DNA of 64,000 bases, from positions 11,055-75,054 of the IMG/VR virus record IMGVR_UViG_3300045988_089680; one strand, 5' to 3'. Below are positions 2,885 through 39,265 of this stretch, in pieces (position 1 is the stretch's first letter; the number at the start of each line of letters is the position of its first letter). The translations under genes were made by a program, and so were the position numbers. Under the pieces are notes generated by a model that worked only from the letters and a program-made list of their open reading frames with translations, was not told the origin of the DNA and searched no databases. The DNA is from a virus.

Positions 2885-3232
2885 ATGGCAAAGGTAAGAA
2901 GAACAGAATTAAAAAAGATTGCCGCTGCTTACGAAAAGAAGGGCGGCAATATGGCTGCTACGGCAGTAGCTTTGGGCATTACACGCCAAGCCTTATATAA
3001 CTGGAGAAAAGAGGATGAGAAGTTAGCCAAGATGTTGGACGATATAGATGAAGGCATTCTTGACTTTACTGAAAGCAAGTTGGTTGAAAAGGTGAACGAA
3101 GGCAACCTAACTGCAATAATCTTCCTTCTGAAAACCAAGGGCAAGAAGCGTGGCTATGTCGAGCAAGTAGATAACAGATTAGTAGAAAATCCATTCGAGA
3201 AGTTAATGAAGGAGCTTCCCGATGATGATTAG
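2885..3232 (+). CDS. terS: terminase small subunit
   Basis: N-terminal HTH (ALGITRQALYNWRK) and FLLKTKGKKRGY, typical of small terminases. Lies just upstream of the large terminase. Start moved to the ATG at 2885. Confidence 0.6.
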   Translation: MAKVRRTELKKIAAAYEKKGGNMAATAVALGITRQALYNWRKEDEKLAKMLDDIDEGILDFTESKLVEKVNEGNLTAIIFLLKTKGKKRGYVEQVDNRLVENPFEKLMKELPDDD

Positions 3233-23098: not shown

Positions 23099-24205
23099 AT
23101 GGGTAACACAGTTAAAGGAGCGTTCACGGTGCGCTTTCTCCGAACAGGAGACCAAATCTTTATAGTTAAGAACGTCGTAAAATTCGACCAGAAAGGAACT
23201 GAGAGTGGAGCTGCTTTGTTTCAGGCGATAGATCCTACGAACGGCACTTTGTCAGCAGATTGGAAAACAGACATCTACAATCAGCCTGCGCTCAAAGTAG
23301 GTCTTAGCAGTGCTGTAGGCAATCCTGTAACGATAACTAACATCAAGTGGACCTACAGAGGTGTGGAGCTTGCATTTAACGCAAGTGCGGCAACAAGTGG
23401 CAACTATGTAGGATGGCAGCTTTCAACGGACGGTAAATTTGCTAAAAAGGAGACAGACGGTTACTGCTATCTCCGTTTTATCGACAATGCTGCAAGTCCT
23501 TCGGTGGTGTCTAACCAAATCATCGGCTTTGAAATTAGCTATATATGCAACAATGTGCGTGACACATACAAAGGCTCAGAAGATGTACTTATACAGGAAG
23601 CAGGTGCTGACAGCTACTCAGTGATTATAAGCACGAACATTGTATCACTCGAAGCAACCCAAAACACAGAAACAACTCTAACAGCTCGATGTATGTACGG
23701 TGTAAAGGACATAGCAGACGATGAGTTTACTGCAAATTGGAAACTGGAATGGTACAAGGACTTTGTTCTTATTGAAGGTCAGAATGAAAAAACGCTCACG
23801 GTGACACGTGACGATGTTGACGGTAGCTCTGTATATAGCGTTAAGCTCCTGCATAAGGAAGGAGACGCATGGGTAGTGAAAGCTGTTGATGCACAGAGAA
23901 TAACAGATGAGTCGGACGAGTGGCAGATTAAAGCGACACCAGACGGTACAAATCCCGATGCCATCTCAAAGACGAGCAATGCAAAATATTTGCTCACCCT
24001 AACCCAGAATGGTTCTCCGTACACTAACAGTACAATCACGTGGAGTTGGGAGGTATGGAATGCTATCAATGTTAAGACATACACAGGCTCAGGCTCAAGC
24101 GTGACTCTTACAGCGGATATGGCAAAATGTATACCCGACACGAGTAATACCGACAAATACTATCACTCAGATGTAGCAGTTGAAGTGGAAGCAACAATAT
24201 CGTAA
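23099..24205 (+). CDS. tail fibre-associated protein
   Basis: 368 aa, beta-rich (T/S/V/W repeats). Immediately upstream of the DGR target gene. Confidence 0.4.
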   Translation: MGNTVKGAFTVRFLRTGDQIFIVKNVVKFDQKGTESGAALFQAIDPTNGTLSADWKTDIYNQPALKVGLSSAVGNPVTITNIKWTYRGVELAFNASAATSGNYVGWQLSTDGKFAKKETDGYCYLRFIDNAASPSVVSNQIIGFEISYICNNVRDTYKGSEDVLIQEAGADSYSVIISTNIVSLEATQNTETTLTARCMYGVKDIADDEFTANWKLEWYKDFVLIEGQNEKTLTVTRDDVDGSSVYSVKLLHKEGDAWVVKAVDAQRITDESDEWQIKATPDGTNPDAISKTSNAKYLLTLTQNGSPYTNSTITWSWEVWNAINVKTYTGSGSSVTLTADMAKCIPDTSNTDKYYHSDVAVEVEATIS

Positions 24206-24226
24206 TTATTTAAAAAAACAACAAAT

Positions 24227-25609
24227 ATGACAGCATTCAGCAAAATTACAGAACGAGGACTATCATCAAGTCTTAACGAAACGGATTACATAATGGTTGT
24301 GGCAGGTGGCTCGCTCAAGCGAATCACTCTCGCCAATCTCAGAGCGATGATGGAGGAAAACCAGCAGCAGTTCTTGGACGAGAACGCATTTTATATCGAA
24401 GAAAACACGGCATCGAGCAAAGGAAGTACAAGCTGCGACACTGGCGGCAGCAGCCTTATGCGTCAGATATGGCTATCTAAGATTACTGGCATCCTAATGT
24501 CTCCCGATGGTCACTATACACGTCTGAATCCCAAGGACCACCGATATACAGCAGATGGCGACCAAGTCGTGAGCAACGGAGTGGTTGTGGCTGCATATCA
24601 AAAAGCAGACTGGTTCGGCATGTTGGACGGTGGTTATTGGAACTTTATACAAGAGGTGGTTATCAGCGGTGTTAAGCACCTTCGTCACCACATATCGCTC
24701 ACTCCATTGCCCGGTGGATGGTACACTAAGAACGTACCTGTAGGCATGTTTAAATGCTTTATGCAGAATAACCAGTTGCGAAGCATTCCATTTGTAGTAC
24801 CTACTGGAAGTCAGAAGATAAACAATTTCTTCAACCTTGCGCAAGCACGAAACAAAAATTATGGTTTGGCTGGCGAGCCTTTCCGCAATTTCCTGCTACA
24901 GTACATGATGGCTAAGTATGGATATCGTGATATACAGAACCTAACAGCTAAGGATGGTACTAAGATTTTCGGTCCAGGTCTGGATGGAACAGAAAAAAGC
25001 GCAACATCAACATTAGCAGACGGATTCGAACGACAGAAGAATATCAAGACAGGCGCGTGTCTCGCTCTTGGTTACAATGATGGCAAAGTTGAAGTCAAGG
25101 ATGCAGATAATTACGCATGTCACAGTGTAAACGTAGGAGTATGGGAAAATCCATACGGTCAGTATTGGGAAACAGACGGACACTTATGCTCAGTAGGTAC
25201 AACAGTGTATCAGTGGGACAGTAACTTTATGCCGAGTATTGATAAACCTACGGTAGACACATTTGCAACGGTTGATTGCCGTAAGCTTACAATACTGTCA
25301 TCAAAAGAATGGGTTTCTAATCATGAGATAACGCTTGTCACAACGGCAGGAGCACAGTACATGAGCTATGTGCCAATTGTTGAAAAGAATGGCATTAGCT
25401 ATAATGATGGCTATTCATACTCTGCTAATGGTCAGCTGTGGCTGTGTGGCGGTTTCTCGGACGCCGCTTCGGATTGCGGTCTCGAGCGTGCGCACTCGGG
25501 TAGCGCTTGGGCGGCCGCGAGCTCGTACGTCTCGGCTCGGCTTGATTATCATGGCGAGATTAAAGAGGTTACCTCAGCAGAACTCAAAAAGATACTCGCA
25601 AGTGCATAG
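24227..25609 (+). CDS. DGR target protein (receptor-binding tail fibre candidate) with C-terminal variable region
   Basis: 460 aa. The last ~60 codons (LWLCGGFSDAASDCGLERAHSGSAWAAASSYVSARL) are encoded by the VR, which matches the downstream TR. Confidence 0.8.
   Translation: MTAFSKITERGLSSSLNETDYIMVVAGGSLKRITLANLRAMMEENQQQFLDENAFYIEENTASSKGSTSCDTGGSSLMRQIWLSKITGILMSPDGHYTRLNPKDHRYTADGDQVVSNGVVVAAYQKADWFGMLDGGYWNFIQEVVISGVKHLRHHISLTPLPGGWYTKNVPVGMFKCFMQNNQLRSIPFVVPTGSQKINNFFNLAQARNKNYGLAGEPFRNFLLQYMMAKYGYRDIQNLTAKDGTKIFGPGLDGTEKSATSTLADGFERQKNIKTGACLALGYNDGKVEVKDADNYACHSVNVGVWENPYGQYWETDGHLCSVGTTVYQWDSNFMPSIDKPTVDTFATVDCRKLTILSSKEWVSNHEITLVTTAGAQYMSYVPIVEKNGISYNDGYSYSANGQLWLCGGFSDAASDCGLERAHSGSAWAAASSYVSARLDYHGEIKEVTSAELKKILASA
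25434..25544 (+). repeat. DGR variable repeat (VR)
   Basis: 111 bp aligned to the TR at an offset of 286 bp. 99/111 identical. 11 of the 12 differences lie opposite TR adenines. Confidence 0.85.
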
Positions 25610-25636
25610 AAATTATTAAAATCTCCCCAAGGGGGT

Positions 25637-25656
25637 GTGGGGGATAAATCCCCCAC
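25637..25656 (+). promoter_or_regulatory. GC-rich hairpin downstream of the VR (8-bp stem, 4-nt loop)
   Basis: GTGGGGGA-TAAA-TCCCCCAC is a perfect inverted repeat with no T-tract. It sits 28 nt after the target stop codon. Confidence 0.6.
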
Positions 25657-25719
25657 TCAAATCATACCCCCAAAAACTCCTTGCCCAAGCTCGTGGCAAG
25701 GTAGGCAAAGGATAAGGAT

Positions 25720-25830
25720 AGCTGTGGCTGTGTGGCGGTTACTCGGACGCCGCTTCGGATTGCGGTCTCGAGCGTGCGAACTCGAATAACGCTTGGGCGT
25801 ACACGAGCTCGTACATCTCGGCTCGAATTA
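25720..25830 (+). repeat. DGR template repeat (TR)
   Basis: Non-coding copy of the VR. In the VR frame it carries AAC/AAT/TAC/ACG/ATC at the positions that vary. Confidence 0.85.
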
Positions 25831-26087
25831 CTTCAACGTCTTTCGGAAACGGAGGACGAAATATAAGGACATTAGTACTGCGTCATGGGAAAATGTCCGC
25901 CTTATCTGAGCCTCGGCAGCTGGTGCATAAGTATAGCCAGTGATTAGCCGGAACAAATCGAACTTGCGCAGGCAACGTCAGCGACCTGCCAGTGGTGTTA
26001 GTAAATCCAAATTGGAAGTTGAAAGCTCTGCACAGAGAGAAGCAAGCTACCGATAAAAAATACGAGTTACTTGAAAACACGAAAGAC

Positions 26088-27608
26088 ATGCCGAAAAGAC
26101 AAGGTTACATATACGACCAGATGTGGCAATGGGACACATTAAAGGAAGCGGATAGAGTATCTACAAGACGTAAAAAGAACTACGGTGTAAAGAAGCACAA
26201 GAAGCAATGGATTAAAGACCTTGTGGAAGTTCAGAATATTATCCACGACCGCAAGATGCGAACCGACGAATATAAGCATATGGAGGTGAACAATGGCAAG
26301 AAGAGGAGAAAAATCAGCAAACTTAACTTTCATCCAAATCACCTTGAACATCAAGCCTTGGTCTTAGTAAGTCACGACAGAATAGAACGCACATTGATTT
26401 CGCACACTTATGCGTCGAGAATCGGCTATGGACAGATAGCAGGTGCGTTGCAAGTAAAGAAATGGTTGCGAGAAAAAAGTGAGGAATGCTTGTGGTATGC
26501 ACAAGGCGACATTTGCAAATACTATGCAAACATAGCACATGCCGTGTTGAAGAATAACTTGGAATACCTCTTTAAGGATAAAGAGTTTATCGATGCCTAC
26601 ATGGAACCGTTCGAGAGGTTTACTATAAGCGGTAAGGGCATACCTCTTGGAATCCGACCAAGCCAAGACAGCGGAAATATAGCTCTTATGCGATTTGACA
26701 GACATATGAAGGAGGTTGCAAAAGCTCACCTTTACCTGCGATACCTTGATGATTTCGTGATATTCGGAAGAACCAAGGGCGAGGTTAAGAGAAAAATGAA
26801 AATGGCGGAAGCTTTCCTTAAAGAATTAGGTTTTAAGATACACGAACCTAAAATACGCCCTATCAGCGAAGGTTTAGACTTCCTTGGTTACGTATTCTAC
26901 GAAGGTGGTGATATGTACTGGAGGAAGAGCAACAAGGTAAGTTGGCTGAAAAGAAGAACTAAGGTAACCAACAAACGCCGACTTCATGAGATAGACGCAG
27001 CAGCATGGGGAATGATAAAATGGGGAAATAAACATTGTAAAAGGTTATATAAAATGGAAACAGGAATAGATATGAGCGAACTCGGCATAGAACTGCCGAA
27101 GAAAACGGACAGTATGGGTATGCGCATTATCGACGCTCCTAAGATTACTGCATCAGTTGTGCTTAACAGTGAGCTTGAAGTGGTAGATTGGGTAAGAAAC
27201 GTTGAGACAAGCTACGGCACGGGGCGTTATGCTTTGGAGGTTGTCTTCTATGGAAAGCACCATAAGCTCATTGTTAACACGTCAAAAATCAAGCAGATTA
27301 TCGATGGTTTCGCCCTTGCCAACGTGACAAGCTTTACTGGCAAGTTCAAAGATGAAGGTGGTAATCATTTTTACTTTGACAATGTTAGAATCACAGGTAT
27401 TGACAAACGACCTATAGGCAGGAACGAGGAAGGTAAACTCATTTTTACCGACAAGAATGAACCAGTTGACATGGATGCCATGAAAGCCAAGGGTGCGGAA
27501 AATGTCAAAAAGGAAGCTGAAATAATGAAGAATGTGGAAGCTGCACGCAAGGCAGAACTTGAGAAAAAGGCTGCTGAACAAGAAGAAAAGAATCAAAACA
27601 AAAAATAG
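26088..27608 (+). CDS. DGR reverse transcriptase with C-terminal extension
   Basis: GIPLGIRPSQDSGN (SQ motif) and RYLDDFVIFG (YxDD). Start moved to ATG 26088 (MPKRQGYIYD...). About 185 aa beyond the RT core ends in a K/E-rich tail. Confidence 0.85.
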   Translation: MPKRQGYIYDQMWQWDTLKEADRVSTRRKKNYGVKKHKKQWIKDLVEVQNIIHDRKMRTDEYKHMEVNNGKKRRKISKLNFHPNHLEHQALVLVSHDRIERTLISHTYASRIGYGQIAGALQVKKWLREKSEECLWYAQGDICKYYANIAHAVLKNNLEYLFKDKEFIDAYMEPFERFTISGKGIPLGIRPSQDSGNIALMRFDRHMKEVAKAHLYLRYLDDFVIFGRTKGEVKRKMKMAEAFLKELGFKIHEPKIRPISEGLDFLGYVFYEGGDMYWRKSNKVSWLKRRTKVTNKRRLHEIDAAAWGMIKWGNKHCKRLYKMETGIDMSELGIELPKKTDSMGMRIIDAPKITASVVLNSELEVVDWVRNVETSYGTGRYALEVVFYGKHHKLIVNTSKIKQIIDGFALANVTSFTGKFKDEGGNHFYFDNVRITGIDKRPIGRNEEGKLIFTDKNEPVDMDAMKAKGAENVKKEAEIMKNVEAARKAELEKKAAEQEEKNQNKK

Positions 27609-27619
27609 GAGGAAATAAA

Positions 27620-28054
27620 ATGAAAAATCAGTATGGAAATATCAGACGAGTGTTTATGACAGAGAAGCCTATGGTATACGACCGAGAGACGCGTATAGCA
27701 TACATGGACTTTCAAACTGACACACAGACGAAAACTAACACCGACAATGTTAGTAATACAACAAAGGGCAAGAAAGAGTCTAACACTATTGAGGGATACA
27801 GCGGTTTTGTTGTACAGACAGACGGTATCATCGATTACGGACACCTCAAGAGCTTGCTCATTGAAGCAGGTTATCCTCAGAAGGAAGAACATGCTATTTC
27901 TATCAACACAATCAGCGCACTCATGGCAAAGATTAATGGCAAGGAGCTGAGTGATGATGCTAAGAATGACATCGCTACTTTTGAGGAGTTTGACGAGTAT
28001 CGCGGTCTGTGCGCAAACTGTGCAAGAGCGATAGTTGACATATTCAAGGTATAA
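27620..28054 (+). CDS. hypothetical protein downstream of the RT
   Basis: 144 aa. AGGAGG lies 7 nt upstream. Acidic, not Avd-like. Confidence 0.5.
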   Translation: MKNQYGNIRRVFMTEKPMVYDRETRIAYMDFQTDTQTKTNTDNVSNTTKGKKESNTIEGYSGFVVQTDGIIDYGHLKSLLIEAGYPQKEEHAISINTISALMAKINGKELSDDAKNDIATFEEFDEYRGLCANCARAIVDIFKV

Positions 28055-30385: not shown

Positions 30386-30814
30386 ATGAAAGTAAGTAAC
30401 GAATTAATTGACAAGATTAAACAGTTTGAGGGCTACCGCTCTAAAGCTTATAGATGTTCGGCAGGAGTGCTGACGTGTGGCTACGGTCACACTGAGGGAG
30501 TGACTGCAAGGACTACGTGCAACAAGACTAAGGCTCTTGCATGGTTAAAATCCGACCTTGAGCCGATAGAGAACTTCCTCTCGGCTGTGCCTGAGGTGGC
30601 AAAGACACAAGGGAGGTTTGACGCTTGTGCGGACTTCTGTTTCAATCTTGGCATGGGGGCGTTTAAGGTGTCTACGCTCTTCAAGCTGATACAGAAGAAG
30701 GCTTCGGTGACTGCTATTCAGGCAGAGTTCTTAAAGTGGATTTACGCAGGTGGCAAACCTTTGGAAGGATTGAAAAACCGCAGACGATGGGAAGCTCAGA
30801 GATGGGTCGAATAA
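30386..30814 (+). CDS. endolysin, T4-lysozyme-like (GH24)
   Basis: IKQFEGYRSKAYRCSAGVLTCGYGHT matches the GH24 catalytic Glu region and GYG motif. Confidence 0.8.
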   Translation: MKVSNELIDKIKQFEGYRSKAYRCSAGVLTCGYGHTEGVTARTTCNKTKALAWLKSDLEPIENFLSAVPEVAKTQGRFDACADFCFNLGMGAFKVSTLFKLIQKKASVTAIQAEFLKWIYAGGKPLEGLKNRRRWEAQRWVE

Positions 30815-30836
30815 TTAATACATTAAGATAAAGAAA

Positions 30837-31325
30837 ATGGTGAATAATATAACTGCAAGTACAGGACGTGCTGTTGTGGTCGGCACGATGGGCGTTGAAG
30901 CAATGACAGCACTCTACGATTTACGATGGATGCTTGTGTTGATAGTGGTGTTGATAGTTGCGGACTTTTGGTTCGGGGTGAGCGAGAGCCTTCATAAACA
31001 CGAGCACTTCCGCTTCTCGAGAGCAGGACGGAGAACGTGCAACAAGGCGGTGGACTATGTGACGTACCTTATACTTGGCTCGGTGATAGGTCTTGCTATC
31101 TTTGAGCCGCTTGGTTGGGCGACACACACCACTACGGCTGCTATAGGATTGGGGTTTGGATGCGTGTGGGAGATTGATTCGATTGTGGGTCATGTGTGCG
31201 AGCTGCACGGTGTAAAAAACAGGTTTTCTATTAAGCGTCTCATTATCGCGCTGATAAAAAAGAAGGATGCTGACATGGGAGAAGCGGTTGAAGAGGCGTG
31301 GAGTGAAGAAGGAGAAAAGAAATAG
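30837..31325 (+). CDS. holin-like membrane protein
   Basis: Several hydrophobic helices (LVLIVVLIVADFWFGV, YLILGSVIGLAIF, AAIGLGFGCVWEI) and a charged C-tail. Adjacent to the endolysin. Confidence 0.5.
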   Translation: MVNNITASTGRAVVVGTMGVEAMTALYDLRWMLVLIVVLIVADFWFGVSESLHKHEHFRFSRAGRRTCNKAVDYVTYLILGSVIGLAIFEPLGWATHTTTAAIGLGFGCVWEIDSIVGHVCELHGVKNRFSIKRLIIALIKKKDADMGEAVEEAWSEEGEKK

Positions 31326-36683: not shown

Positions 36684-37937
36684 CTATTTATCCTCGTTTA
36701 TATCAAGTATATAATCTATTACCTTACGATTTGCATCGTCTATTTTTTTTCGATTAAAATTGATATACACTTGTGTAACAGCAGCTCCTGTCGAATAAGA
36801 ATGTCCAAGAGCACGACTTATAACATCTTCTGGTATATCAAGTTCGCTTGCCAATGTAGCCCATGTATGCCTTGCCCAGTATGATGATAGACGAGGGAAC
36901 AAAGGTGTGTACTCCTTGATGAATTTATGGCGATGCGTTTTTGAAAATTTCGGGTTTTGAATTATAACGCATTTCCCTACTCTTTTAAGCTGATAGTCAA
37001 AACTACCTATAAAAGATTGTGTAGTCTTATATCTTTCTAAGATGTCTAGTAAGTACTCGTTGCCTTTGTATCGATTTATTATCTCAAGTGCTTCTGGTTC
37101 TACTTTTATAGAATACAACTTTTTGGTCTTCCGGCGTCTGTAGTTAATTCTACCTTGACTATCTATTTCTCTCAATTCGCACAAATCAGCAATGTTAATG
37201 CCAATTAGATATATACATAACTTAAATAAGTCTATAGTTCGCTGTAGATGAGGATCGGCTACTGCAAACAATGACCTAACCTCATCTAAAGTTAAAGAGC
37301 GTTTTACTGTCTGTTCCGTTTTAATCTTAAACACACGAAAAGGATAATTCTGAGTAATCTCGTTATCTAAAGCATCATTGAAAACAGCTCTAATACTACG
37401 AAAATGCATGTTACGTCCATTTATAGTAGGAGAATACCTCCGTAGGAAAATGTCAAATCCGGTAAGCCAGTCTTTTGTTATGTTTTCAAATGTTTTTGAC
37501 TTAATATGATTGTCATACTCTAACATCTTCTTTGCTGTTAATAAATATATCTTTTTTGTTCGCATTGCAGAACGAGAGTTCGCAAAAGAAAGAAAACGAT
37601 TATAGAAACTGTTAGACGCAGCAACAGCAGGATCCAGCATTTCTTGCACTTTATTTTTTATTTGTGTTGCTGTCAGTTTTGTTAATTTTCCATCCTTGGT
37701 TAAATCCATGATTATATTAGACACTTTATTGCGTAGAGTGTCTATATAACTTTGAAGAGCTTTCTTATTAGGATGGTCTTTAATACGTTCTTTTTCTGCA
37801 TCCCATTGAGTGGGATATATTCTCACATTCAAAGATATATAAGCAGAAGACCCCTTCTTATTTATGCCGATTTTAAGAGGAGCTTCTTCACCACGCTTTA
37901 CTGAACGCTTATCTAAATATAAATGTACTGTTGCCAT
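36684..37937 (-). CDS. int: tyrosine recombinase (phage integrase) with N-terminal arm-binding-type domain
   Basis: ARHTWATLA, LGHS and TQVY fit the R..HxxR..Y catalytic pattern. The N-terminus (VHLYLDKRSVKRGEEAPLKIGI) is typical of Bacteroidota integrases. Confidence 0.85.
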   Translation of the reverse strand: MATVHLYLDKRSVKRGEEAPLKIGINKKGSSAYISLNVRIYPTQWDAEKERIKDHPNKKALQSYIDTLRNKVSNIIMDLTKDGKLTKLTATQIKNKVQEMLDPAVAASNSFYNRFLSFANSRSAMRTKKIYLLTAKKMLEYDNHIKSKTFENITKDWLTGFDIFLRRYSPTINGRNMHFRSIRAVFNDALDNEITQNYPFRVFKIKTEQTVKRSLTLDEVRSLFAVADPHLQRTIDLFKLCIYLIGINIADLCELREIDSQGRINYRRRKTKKLYSIKVEPEALEIINRYKGNEYLLDILERYKTTQSFIGSFDYQLKRVGKCVIIQNPKFSKTHRHKFIKEYTPLFPRLSSYWARHTWATLASELDIPEDVISRALGHSYSTGAAVTQVYINFNRKKIDDANRKVIDYILDINEDK

Positions 37938-38269: not shown

Positions 38270-39265
38270 TTATAATGATGCTGCCATTTTGAAAGCTGAT
38301 ATAATACGAGCCCTCATATTGTATAGAGAATCTATATTGTCAATCTGTATCCATTCGTTGGTCTTGTAGGAATCAACAGGGAAGCAAATCTTAATAGAAG
38401 AACTACGCTTCGACTTTACTCGAATAATCCATCTCCAGACAGAACCACCTTGGTTGACAGTAAAATATGACTTGAACTTCTTGTATTGTATTTCTGAGCA
38501 TTTATCTTTCAGAACATCTTTTACAATCTCGTATGCTCTTAACTCAATTCTGTTTATTATAGGAGTCTCGTCAGTTTGAGGAGGTGTAGGTATAAAATCA
38601 TTCATTAATGACTTTATTGTACTTTTGTAAACAGAATGTAAAGATTTATCATATCCTTCTCCGAGGGCAGACTTGGTCGCATATTCTACGAAATCATCAC
38701 TCGGACACATTATGTTGTTATTGATAAAATCAGAAAGCATATGTCTTAGTCTTATCTCTGTGAACCTTTCTATTATTTTTAGCTCGTCTAAGCTGTTTTT
38801 AGAGAACAACCCTAATAATTCTATACCTACAGAATCACAATTGTTCATATCGAAAATAAAGAACGGTTTAGCATCCATTAAGTTTGTCTTATCAAAATCA
38901 GCAAAGAACCAATACTCAATACCGTTAGTTAAAACTGCAAAACGTGCGTTAGTAGCTACATAATATTTAGATAGTTGTGGGACAAACGGGGCAAGTTCTT
39001 TTGAGCATTGCTTACATTCGACTATCATCACTGGCTCTTCGTCCTTGAAAATAGCATAATCCACCCTATCACCTTTGTTGGATATGTCGCATGGCATTTC
39101 TGGTACAACCTCCAAGGGATTGTACACATCATAGCCCAAAGACAGCAATAACGGCAACACAAAAGCGTTCTTTGTGGCTTCCTCCGTGCCGATATGGTCT
39201 TTCATCTTTTCTATCTTTGTTGATAGATTATCTAAATTTTCTGTTAAGTTCATTGCCCTATACAT
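38270..39265 (-). CDS. HsdR_N-like PD-(D/E)xK nuclease-domain protein (stand-alone)
   Basis: GDRVDYAIFKDEEPVMIVECKQ gives a D...ExK motif. N-terminal NAFVLPLLLSLGY resembles the type I R-subunit N-terminal family. The C-terminal ~150 aa are unassigned. Confidence 0.55.
   Translation of the reverse strand: MYRAMNLTENLDNLSTKIEKMKDHIGTEEATKNAFVLPLLLSLGYDVYNPLEVVPEMPCDISNKGDRVDYAIFKDEEPVMIVECKQCSKELAPFVPQLSKYYVATNARFAVLTNGIEYWFFADFDKTNLMDAKPFFIFDMNNCDSVGIELLGLFSKNSLDELKIIERFTEIRLRHMLSDFINNNIMCPSDDFVEYATKSALGEGYDKSLHSVYKSTIKSLMNDFIPTPPQTDETPIINRIELRAYEIVKDVLKDKCSEIQYKKFKSYFTVNQGGSVWRWIIRVKSKRSSSIKICFPVDSYKTNEWIQIDNIDSLYNMRARIISAFKMAASL

Follow-up and report, generated by a model that had tools for sequence, protein, structure and literature searches.

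The locus at 24227–27608 of the window (the whole 64,000-nucleotide stretch of viral DNA analysed here) raises the question of whether a repeat pair, a tail gene and a reverse transcriptase (RT) together form a working diversity-generating retroelement (DGR). Our reading, to which we give a probability of roughly 93%, is that this is a functional DGR, carried within its tail module by a temperate phage of Bacteroidales. A first-pass annotation of the sequence had proposed adenine-directed mutagenic retrohoming that diversifies a phage receptor-binding protein, and this proposal is supported by the adenine bias of the repeats, the type of RT, the fold of the target and the diversity of VR. All features described lie on the + strand.

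Ungapped alignment at an offset of 286 reproduced exactly the annotated repeat pair, in which VR (25434–25544) and TR (25720–25830) are identical at 99/111 positions. All 12 mismatches fell at the coordinates listed in the annotation, 11 of them opposite TR adenines (11/19 adenines versus 1/92 other TR positions; Fisher one-sided p=1.8e-9), and this bias persisted on realignment. The varying codons (AAC, AAT, TAC, ACG and ATC when TR is read in the VR frame) and the locally high GC content of both repeats (59–66% versus about 42% background) were likewise as first described. A separate repeat search of the window returned the pair as 25434–25539 and 25720–25825, and no third TR-like copy was found in the 64 kb. 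TR is non-coding, and in the VR frame a TAG stop codon lies just before it (25719–25721), overlapping the first TR base. The same architecture and adenine bias were seen in 16 IMG/VR relatives (RT identity 62–100%), at five Bacteroidales genome loci and at about 20 loci with 44–50% RT identity, such that differences are tied to TR adenines in more than 40 related loci.

The repeat match as annotated therefore stood, but its 3′ end at 25544 did not. The three 3′-most mismatches (25540, 25541 and 25544, opposite TR 25826, 25827 and 25830) correspond to a fixed VR/TR difference in relatives: VR reads G-C-TTGA and TR reads A-A-TTAC in 16/17 pairs (the window plus 16 relatives), the only exception being the VR of relative L014, whose initial base here is A. 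At 25540 the difference is synonymous (CGG/CGA). On this pattern the three mismatches are a fixed IMH/IMH*-like boundary and not diversification, which places the end of the diversified VR at 25539 (25434–25539, codons 403–438), 70 nt before the target stop codon. Within this tract there are nine mismatches, eight at adenines (of the 16 adenines in TR 25720–25825, 15 of which lie in a 105-nt core) and one at a T. This sole non-adenine mismatch pairs TR T25800 with VR G25514, at a site where the ancestral TR of the window's clade had A; G25514 cannot be a faithful copy of the present TR.

At the boundary itself, GC-rich CTCGGCTCG, common to VR and TR, is followed by VR-specific GCTTGATT or TR-specific AATTACTT, a difference fixed in nearly all relatives. 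The putative IMH-like element of VR (GCTTGATTA, 25540–25548) thus has an IMH*-like counterpart in TR (AATTACTTC, 25826–25834) that is invariant in all family TRs and differs from the VR element. An IMH/IMH* role for these sequences is suggested by analogy with BPP-1 (PMC3240598, PMC5758913). A GC-rich hairpin predicted by RNAfold (GTGGGGGA-TAAA-TCCCCCAC, 25637–25656) lies beyond the target stop codon, about 95 nt past the end of VR, with counterparts in clade B (GTGGGGGA..CCCCCAC) and in relative L017 (GTGGCGG..CCGCCAC). This hairpin is a candidate terminator or DGR cruciform, and may simply be a terminator. About 34% of DGRs have a GC-rich inverted repeat directly downstream of the IMH; no GC hairpin was found directly 3′ of the IMH-like sequence here.

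The RT gene most likely starts at ATG 26088 (506 aa), because this codon aligns with the start in all relatives and because a 538-aa ORF read from the alternative start, GTG 25992, would extend over a structured RNA that is conserved. The ORF is intact, and its core (residues 1–325, 26088–27062) matched Pfam RVT_1 (1e-13) and carries both annotated motifs, the catalytic YLDD and the PSQ motif (LGIRPSQ). By sequence, residues 1–298 matched BPP-1 bRT (PDB 8ub7) with E=2.8e-20, as compared with 5.6e-8 for a group II maturase, and 8ub7 was also the best Foldseek match by fold (target-normalised TM 0.88, rmsd 2.7 Å). R74, which is invariant in the family, aligns with bRT R74, and L187 aligns with bRT I181. 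The signature of DGR RTs is [I/V/L]GxxxSQ, not QGxxxSP (PMC7826257). By sequence, fold and signature motif, this RT is of DGR type and neither a retron nor a group II enzyme, which agrees with the class first assigned to it.

These data also bear on the idea that the repeats are an ordinary duplication or gene-conversion pair that happens to lie beside an unrelated RT (retron, group II or defence-associated), with no RT-mediated transfer. NCBIfam did return weak, sub-threshold matches to group II, Drt3a, Drt2 and retron models, with no DGR-named model among them. However, these scores lie far under the cut-offs (e.g. 61 against 300 bits), bRT is the best match in both structure and sequence, and the extreme adenine specificity is common to the window and the more than 40 other loci, so we regard this explanation as having a negligible chance of being correct. 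A group II intron RT/maturase was rejected on its motif (LGxxxSQ, not QGxxxSP), its TIGR04416 score (61 bits versus a cut-off of 300) and the absence of an Rfam intron RNA; a retron was rejected on its model score (29 bits versus a cut-off of 235), on retron structures that ranked far below bRT and on the absence of an Rfam retron RNA.

The target gene (24227–25609) encodes a 460-aa tail-fibre or receptor-binding-type variable protein and sits between tape measure/tail genes and lysis genes. It matched phrog_5302 ('tail protein', E=1.5e-7). When its AlphaFold model (pLDDT 90.8, pTM 0.88) was compared with the PDB by Foldseek, TaqVP (5vf4) was the best and the only significant match (E=9e-8, probability 1.00), with Mtd and TvpA as weak matches below it. 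The C-terminus is predicted by this model to adopt a C-type-lectin fold, one of the folds for which the first-pass annotation had suggested a test by structure prediction. Across 68 homologues, the hypervariable codons (410, 412, 413, 416, 423, 425, 426, 430, 432, 434 and 435) are interleaved with invariant scaffold residues.

Activity in natural populations was assessed by comparing assemblies from different samples with each other. Five independent runs or assemblies were identical at 3,172/3,172 cassette positions outside the repeats, whereas 8–14 of the 105 VR positions differed between them, and 19/22 of the variable positions were at adenines of the pristine TR. Similarly, between the window and its nearest relatives there were 14 differences in 105 VR positions versus 3 in 6,174 positions elsewhere (p=3.6e-23), the VR accounting for 14 of the 20 differences. 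Because of this contrast, the VR must have been rewritten very recently, and the differences between assemblies suggest an element that is active in nature. This population evidence was obtained without read data: the VR is not clonal, since nearly all differences between near-identical phages of independent samples lie in VR, at TR-adenine positions. The host phage is temperate, a gut phage of Bacteroidales and most likely of Prevotella. Tail-targeting DGRs occur in 43% of inducible Bacteroidota prophage species (PMC12629997), which makes a DGR in such a phage ordinary and common.

The supposedly invariant TR has itself changed over time. Among 13 TR alleles of the family, 78/81 changes remove adenines, and comparison with relatives showed that the window's TR lacks 6/21 ancestral adenines (25740, 25749, 25750, 25800, 25807 and 25812). 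The window's clade forms an adenine series of 21, 18 and 15 (the window), with a second branch of 17 and 13, while TRs of other clades have as few as 6 or 7. The signature of erosion is heritable and recurred independently in three clades. Because of the six lost adenines, the diversification capacity of the window's DGR is reduced. This loss is relevant to the possibility that the locus is a relic, in which an ancestor was active but the present phage is not (e.g. through a decaying template) and the VR/TR differences are historical. Consistent with a relic, the adenine count of the window's sub-lineage is lowest in the window's own TR (15 versus 18 and 21), VR G25514 disagrees with TR T25800, and there are relatives with TRs of 6–9 adenines whose VRs mismatch their own TR at non-adenine sites. 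Against it, the RT ORF is intact, as are its catalytic motifs and every RNA helix, VR rewriting was very recent, and at three eroded TR sites specific to the window the VR bases equal the new TR bases, as if homing had outlasted erosion. We therefore consider a relic to be very unlikely, and a functional DGR remains our reading.

As to how adenines were lost, we judge the chances to be about even that TR is occasionally overwritten by its own adenine-mutagenised cDNA or derived VR, progressively losing mutable adenines. Such overwriting may be favoured where, as here, VR and TR ends differ by few bases and neither Avd nor a hairpin adjacent to the IMH is present to tell them apart. Self-mutagenesis of TR has been reported previously only in synthetic DGR systems; those in E. 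coli show the same adenine-specific signature, but are engineered, coupled to recombineering and contrasted with natural DGRs (bioRxiv 10.64898/2026.07.21.739853), whereas the present cases are natural phage lineages. The eroded TRs could instead be assembly chimeras, produced if the phage population was mixed and reads from variant VRs were built into the TR locus. In favour of chimerism, most of the loci were assembled from short metagenomic reads, the two repeats are about 90% identical and separated by about 300 bp, the TR segment specific to the window (GGTTACTCGGACGCCGC) has the same sequence as the VR of relative L002, and the TRs of L074, L008, L048 and L049 are each known from one assembly. 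By contrast, the eroded allele with 17 adenines was identical in eight independent runs whose VRs differed, and that with 18 adenines was present in three assemblies, with contig names indicating different assembly pipelines. In both lineages, the VR bases at eroded sites are those of the eroded TR, the pattern that a heritable template would give, and the new TR bases of L074 differ from those of its own VR. Chimerism is thus unlikely, though with an appreciable residual chance. If TR is indeed overwritten in this way, a hypermutation system would 'burn out' or become hard-wired in nature; if RT-mediated, DGRs would have a built-in decay route that limits how long lineages diversify and by which successful receptor-binding residues become 'frozen'. 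This has bearing on how the host range of gut phages evolves and on how synthetic DGR mutagenesis systems could be designed to be stable.

Two conserved RNA structures flank TR. A hairpin (CCTTGCC/GGCAAGG, followed by TAGGCA; 25679–25707) lies about 20 nt upstream of TR and was found in every clade, always with (T/C)RGGYR after it and with compensatory pairs that include CCTCGCC/GGCGAGG, CCACC/GGTGG, CCCCGG/CCGGGG and CCTGT/ACAGG, among others; it is probably the 5′ part of the DGR RNA. The gap between TR and the RT gene holds a non-coding domain of seven helices (25864–26047) that is conserved above the flanking genes. RNAalifold gave 34 pairs for this domain, 21 with compensatory changes, and 97.8% of cells were paired, compared with 85% in shuffles and 28–46% when the structure was slid; 0/500 shuffles matched any observed measure. 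The domain had no match to an Rfam family, and in position it appears analogous to the 'Sp' spacer of BPP-1.

The avd gene is present in about 74% of DGRs and is essential in BPP-1. Here, the first-pass annotation of a 'complete' DGR held for VR, TR, RT and target but not for the accessory gene: neither Avd nor another known accessory gene was detectable, no ORF fits between VR, TR and RT, a 144-aa acidic ORF after the RT gene had no similarity to Avd, Pfam or PDB entries, and neighbouring ORFs likewise had no such match. In BPP-1, bRT without its partner is inactive (PMC6182149), while Avd is described as not universal among DGRs (PMC5758913). We assume an Avd-independent mechanism for the window's DGR. 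A candidate substitute is the RT's own C-terminal domain (residues about 338–462, 27099–27473), a beta-rich region of about 125 aa, modelled confidently as a separate domain, that a flexible linker separates from the core. This domain is kept across the RT family and corresponds to phrog_19665, of unknown function; it had no Pfam or PDB sequence match and no similarity to the Hankyphage 'Avd', and is rare, with just 31 clusters in a set of 1.84 billion protein representatives. A modelled Lys/Glu-rich terminal helix (residues 462–505, 27474–27608 with the stop codon) is present in the closest relatives only, and for most homologues the match spans about 91% of the query.

Taken together, these features suggest the following mechanism. 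A non-coding RNA comprising the 5′ hairpin (25679–25707), TR (25720–25825) and the 185-nt structured 3′ domain (25864–26047) would be transcribed, these boundaries being provisional, and bound by the RT encoded just downstream (26088–27608). The RT, possibly self-primed, would copy TR into cDNA faithfully at C, G and U and randomly at A, with its C-terminal domain and the large structured RNA standing in for BPP-1 Avd and Sp RNA. The cDNA would replace VR 25434–25539 at the 3′ end of the tail protein gene, transfer being limited on the 3′ side at CTCGGCTCG, just before VR and TR diverge. As many as 12 codons for the ligand-binding face of the C-type-lectin-fold domain could be rewritten, the 15 core adenines allowing about 10^9 DNA sequences, and this would be expected to alter receptor specificity and hence host range.

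Like the prototype, the DGR of Bordetella phage BPP-1 (mtd-avd-TR-brt), the locus has a phage tail-fibre target with VR in a C-terminal CLec-fold domain, a non-coding TR that closely precedes the RT gene, a GC-rich TR end followed by a VR/TR-specific boundary and a structured RNA between TR and RT. The RT core superimposes on bRT (TM 0.88), with R74 and [I/V/L]GxxxSQ in common, and the fraction of adenines changed is about half in both (8/16 here, about 50% in BPP-1; PMC6182149). Unlike BPP-1, the window's DGR has no avd, an RT of 506 aa (bRT, 328 aa) with the extra domain of about 125 aa and terminal helix, a post-TR RNA of about 185 nt whose sequence shows no detectable similarity to that of Sp, a further conserved hairpin on the 5′ side of TR, and no hairpin directly past the IMH-like sequence, its VR ending 70 nt before the stop codon.

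By the absence of avd, host range and RT extension, rather than by phylogeny, the window's DGR fits the avd-less, Bacteroidales-restricted Lineage 3/3a (Wu et al. 2018, PMC5758913). Its relatives are from Prevotella (including Prevotella sp. 885), Rikenellaceae, Proteiniphilum, Porphyromonadaceae and Bacteroidaceae. Its RT is extended at the C-terminus by a region in which no known motifs occur, as are about 20% of DGR RTs; the excerpted text of that study does not mention a structured RNA, the identity of the C-terminal domain or TR erosion (PMC5758913). The locus is a well-resolved example of a class for which no mechanism is known, and its RT-fused domain and covariation-supported RNA can be tested directly as functional replacements of Avd and Sp RNA.

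Two groups of named phages were also compared. Hankyphage (Bacteroides phage p00) is likewise temperate, with a tail-fibre VR, TR and then RT, and its RT aligns with residues 3–410 of the window's RT, such that part of the C-terminal region is common to both; it differs in its RT (about 25% identity), in having a small ORF that separates VR from TR, and in having a 161-aa ORF after the RT gene that carries the annotation 'Avd' and is unrelated to the window's 144-aa ORF. The closest named phages are LoVEphage and Phocaeicola phage PV4-TP1, with an RT 32.5% identical, distant at the protein level and without DNA similarity. These are temperate Bacteroidota phages in which a tail protein (Mtd_N-like) with VR, TR, RT and lysis genes follow in the same order, without avd; TR is homologous, 16/17 mismatches are at A, and the spacer motifs GTGTTAGTAGGT, CTCGAAAGCTC and AGCAAG are held in common. 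Their database entries divide the RT region into three ORFs, and the original paper described no more than a tail collar fibre gene lying upstream of an RT (PMC8525569).

When 23900-28000 was re-read, ungapped alignment at an offset of 286 set the variable repeat (VR, 25434-25544) of the 460-aa target gene (24227..25609, +) against the template repeat (TR, 25720-25830) with 99/111 identical positions. The 12 mismatches fell at exactly the coordinates listed in the first-pass annotation, which had called a complete diversity-generating retroelement (DGR) at 24227-27608; all but one are opposite TR adenines (11/19 A versus 1/92 non-A; Fisher one-sided p=1.8e-9). An independent repeat finder places the pair at 25434-25539 / 25720-25825. 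As had been described, the TR codons at varying positions, read in the VR frame, are AAC, AAT, TAC, ACG and ATC, and GC content over VR and TR rises to 59-66%, against ~42% in the surroundings. The TR is non-coding, because a stop codon (TAG) in the VR frame overlaps its first base; the 64-kb window has no second TR-like copy, and hence a single target.

Alignment of all VRs and TRs refined the limits of the diversified tract. Both repeats share the GC-rich CTCGGCTCG, followed by G-C-TTGA in all VRs but one and by A-A-TTAC in every TR. Since this difference is fixed across the relatives' repeats, 25540, 25541 and 25544 form an IMH/IMH*-like boundary (IMH and IMH* being the 3' boundary sequences of VR and TR) and do not represent diversification; the first boundary site is synonymous (CGG/CGA), yet is not randomised. 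Thus, the mapped differences and their adenine bias hold, except that these three belong to the boundary, leaving a mutagenised tract of 25434-25539 in which 8/16 adenines and one T had changed (the latter T>G). Non-adenine T>G changes recur in VRs beside or near adenine sites (window VR 25514 / TR 25800; VR 25474 in VRs of the type found at the related locus L072; 25496 in another, L002), and 3/22 variable VR positions in the window clade are not at adenines. The T>G changes are either low-frequency non-A errors by the reverse transcriptase (RT) or traces of earlier TR states.

Related cassettes were collected by protein-guided searches, because an exact masked-adenine TR pattern was too strict, matching one contig in IMG/VR, the window's closest relative (RT 100% identical). 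The searches gave 16 IMG/VR loci (RT 62-100% identical), 10 loci in Bacteroidales genomes, among the relatives being a prophage in the isolate Prevotella sp. 885 (RT 72% identical to the window's), and ~20 further viral loci (RT 44-50% identical). Wherever loci with this RT family reach far enough upstream, the order is target gene with a 3' VR, 245-333 bp, TR, 197-358 bp and RT, and the relatives' VR/TR mismatches are nearly all at TR adenines (e.g. 20/20, 16/16, 14/14 and 12/12). A DNA search of the whole cassette against annotated phages ('distant' mode) gave no match, and named relatives were found at the protein level only. In one Porphyromonadaceae MAG (L023, 1-2036), several long direct repeats of up to 535 nt, 90-95% identical and without adenine bias, lie upstream of the target gene; these are probably duplicated tail-fibre modules.

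In an exact-protein index, a single RT sequence 99% identical to that of the window turned up in ten independent assemblies. Five of the ten cover the whole cassette: 3,172/3,172 positions outside the repeats are identical, while pairwise VR differences amount to 8-14/105 positions, with one pair sharing the same VR. Across ten VRs of the window clade, 19/22 variable positions coincide with adenines of the pristine TR, defined as the majority TR of a clade. Another phage strain, represented by three assemblies, is nearest to the window; 20 of 6,384 aligned bases differ, of which the VR holds 14 and the TR 3, leaving 3 elsewhere (VR enrichment p=3.6e-23). The VR polymorphism anticipated by the first-pass annotation is thus seen between samples, as differences among assemblies.

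The target protein has no Pfam match and matches a PHROG tail-protein family. Searched against the PDB, its predicted model (pLDDT 90.8) retrieved DGR variable proteins only (TaqVP at E=9e-8, with Mtd and TvpA weaker). Among 68 homologues, codons 410, 412, 413, 416, 423, 425, 426, 430, 432, 434 and 435 are hypervariable, and between them runs an invariant scaffold (G408-G409, C417-G418, W428 and S436-A437-R438). The cassette is flanked by tape-measure and tail genes and, at its other end, by lysozyme and holin genes (30386-31325), which come right after the tail module. We take the phage to be temperate because the window also codes for an integrase, a tyrosine integrase with an Arm-binding domain (36684-37937, −); together with the lysozyme and holin, a DAM-like/GNAT-like phage protein (13-1314) and an HSDR_N-domain protein (38270-39265, −), this supports a temperate phage or prophage.

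The RT reading frame can be called from GTG 25992 (538 aa), as gene callers have done in several public assemblies. The extension this adds (25992-26087) is unconserved as protein and overlaps helices H5-H7 of a conserved RNA, and ATG 26088 lines up with the RT start of all relatives. Because of this alignment and the overlap, the gene was taken as 26088-27608 (506 aa), with ATG 26088 the likely start as judged from sequence comparison. The RT matches Pfam RVT_1. Its best relative of solved structure is the RT of Bordetella phage BPP-1 (bRT), both by sequence (8ub7, E=2.8e-20 over residues 1-298, followed by a group II maturase at 5.6e-8) and, using a predicted model, by fold (TM 0.88 on target, rmsd 2.7 Å). 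Both motifs that had been reported, YLDD and ...PSQ..., are present, the latter within LGIRPSQ, which fits the DGR signature [I/V/L]GxxxSQ, as opposed to QGxxxSP in group II and retroviral RTs (PMC7826257). R74, which does not vary across the RT family, aligns with bRT R74, and L187 aligns with bRT I181, these being the two bRT residues shown to promote adenine mutagenesis (PMC7826257). NCBIfam matches to group II, Drt and retron models were all far under their cut-offs. Taken together, the RT type, target fold, adenine bias and VR differences between assemblies support the DGR interpretation, and we consider it highly probable (roughly 93%) that the region is a functional avd-less DGR of a temperate, Prevotella-type phage, where it diversifies a tail protein at its receptor-binding tip.

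In BPP-1, bRT requires the accessory protein Avd and RNA on either side of the TR, with priming from the spacer (PMC6182149). In none of the relatives is there room for an ORF between VR, TR and RT. Directly 3' of the RT lies a 144-aa acidic ORF (27620-28054, +), which is kept in nearly all relatives at 30-63% identity with P17, Y20-D21, Y73 and H75 invariant. Neither Avd nor any Pfam or PDB entry resembles it, and it was therefore rejected as an Avd equivalent; its synteny is uninformative, because the upstream tail gene is equally conserved. One homologue gave a chance-level match to a tail-fibre assembly protein family, and the ORF may encode a tail-fibre chaperone for the downstream 764-aa gene or an unrecognised DGR accessory.

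In the predicted model, the RT itself carries a separate beta-rich domain (residues ~338-462; window 27099-27473) behind a flexible linker, and this domain is kept throughout the RT family. It has no match in Pfam at E<=10, in a profile search of PDB sequences or, by hhalign, to the Hankyphage 'Avd'. When the whole model was searched with Foldseek, the RT core dominated the matches, and the best one in BFVD was another phage RT of the same two-domain build. Only 31 clusters among 1.84 billion representatives contain the domain, either at the end of 455-480 aa RTs or as short proteins or fragments. The domain also ends a 1,074-aa protein (P0266), and a 1,061-aa phage 'tail collar fiber protein' (BFVD A0A8S5L8F2) can be aligned to the RT core across 364 columns; both are hints that other phages have RT fusions, or gene calls that were fused.

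Between TR and RT, 25864-26047 (185 nt) is conserved above the level of neighbouring genes and folds as an RNA of 7 helices, with compensatory changes at 21 of its 34 pairs. Paired cells amount to 97.8%, compared with 85% in shuffled alignments and 28-46% when partners were slid, and 0/500 shuffles matched any observed measure of pairing. Likewise, every clade has a hairpin ~20 nt 5' of the TR, with a (T/C)RGGYR motif after it and many compensatory changes. Rfam, searched with 25300-26300, has no family for the post-TR RNA or the 5' hairpin; a Clostridiales-2 match was discarded as chance level (17 bits versus a gathering score of 58.6). By analogy with BPP-1, the roles of Avd and of the BPP-1 spacer (Sp) RNA would, we infer, fall to the fused domain and the larger RNA.

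Because the window has a single non-A mismatch, TRs were also compared between relatives, with alleles drawn from the window and the related loci L002, L008, L013, L047-L049 and L072-L084. Pristine TRs of the three clades hold 21-23 adenines in a 105-nt core. Set against the pristine TR of their own clade, 13 distinct TR alleles show 81 differences, 78 of them at adenines, with adenines accounting for just ~21% of TR positions (p about 2e-47). The window TR has lost 6/21 adenines (25740, 25749, 25750, 25800, 25807 and 25812). Within its clade, core adenines number 21 in the pristine L002, 18 in the window's three nearest relatives, 17 in eight independent runs, 15 in the window and 13 in L074; L008, L048 and L049, from other clades, retain 6, 7 and 9. 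Identical eroded alleles recur in independent assemblies with differing VRs, so this erosion is heritable and not assembly noise. Changes in the TR are far above the background rate both in the window (3 versus 3 in 6,174 nt elsewhere, p=8.8e-5) and in L074 (5 versus 0 in 3,172 nt, p=3e-8). Where erosion is moderate (window, L047 and the 17-A and 18-A alleles), the VR matches the eroded TR at eroded sites, and homing therefore went on from the new template. Where it is heavy (L008, L048 and L049), the VR still resembles the product of a pristine TR, and thus the TR changed independently of the VR.

Erosion substitutions are T-rich (48 T, 23 C and 7 G), a spectrum distinct from that of the VR (p=2e-4). 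dATP is bRT's most frequent misincorporation, giving A>T on the sense strand (PMC7826257), and the T-rich spectrum weakly favours entry of unselected cDNA into the TR over conversion from selected VRs. We give even odds that the natural loss of template adenines reflects RT-mediated self-mutagenesis. A 3' polarity of erosion is supported in L047 and the window-clade base alleles and unsupported in L013 and in the window-specific changes, and so is mixed overall. For the three window-specific changes (25740, 25749 and 25750), a single contiguous conversion tract from the current VR is excluded, because TR 25741, lying between converted 25740 and 25749, is still A where the VR has T; VR-to-TR conversion followed by renewed homing is a possible source. 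These three changes may also come from chimeric assembly, as the segment they create equals the VR of L002. The sole description of TR adenine loss that we found concerns synthetic E. coli DGR systems, in which the TR is mutated with preferential elimination of dA, in contrast to natural DGRs (bioRxiv 10.64898/2026.07.21.739853); the searchable literature, subscription journals excepted, yielded no report of natural TR erosion.

Tail-targeting DGRs occur in 43% of inducible Bacteroidota prophage species (PMC12629997), and as a DGR the element is ordinary for gut Bacteroidota phages; its interest lies in a well-defined avd-less anatomy, combining fused domain and structured RNA, and in the evidence of natural template adenine loss. 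By its features, it fits the avd-less description of Wu et al., who also report unexplained C-terminal extensions in ~20% of DGR RTs (PMC5758913). The closest named phages, LoVEphage and Phocaeicola phage PV4-TP1 (RT 32.5% identical), have a homologous TR, VR mismatches at A in 16/17 cases, spacer motifs shared with the window and no avd, whereas Hankyphage differs in having an ORF annotated 'Avd' 3' of the RT. In LoVEphage-type records, including PV4-TP1 (L029; PQ571302.1 23164-24707), the RT region gives three separate matches and has three annotated ORFs, one for a reverse transcriptase and two for hypothetical proteins. These may come from one RT bearing the same C-terminal domain as the window's, either frameshifted or divided in annotation. 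Finally, between the window and the group of relatives L072-L079 (P0001), the target outside the VR is 4.5% divergent (57/1,278), intergenic DNA 4.3% and the RT 0.3% (5/1,521), a mosaicism that, on these sequence comparisons, is suggestive of a recombination breakpoint close to the TR/RT junction.
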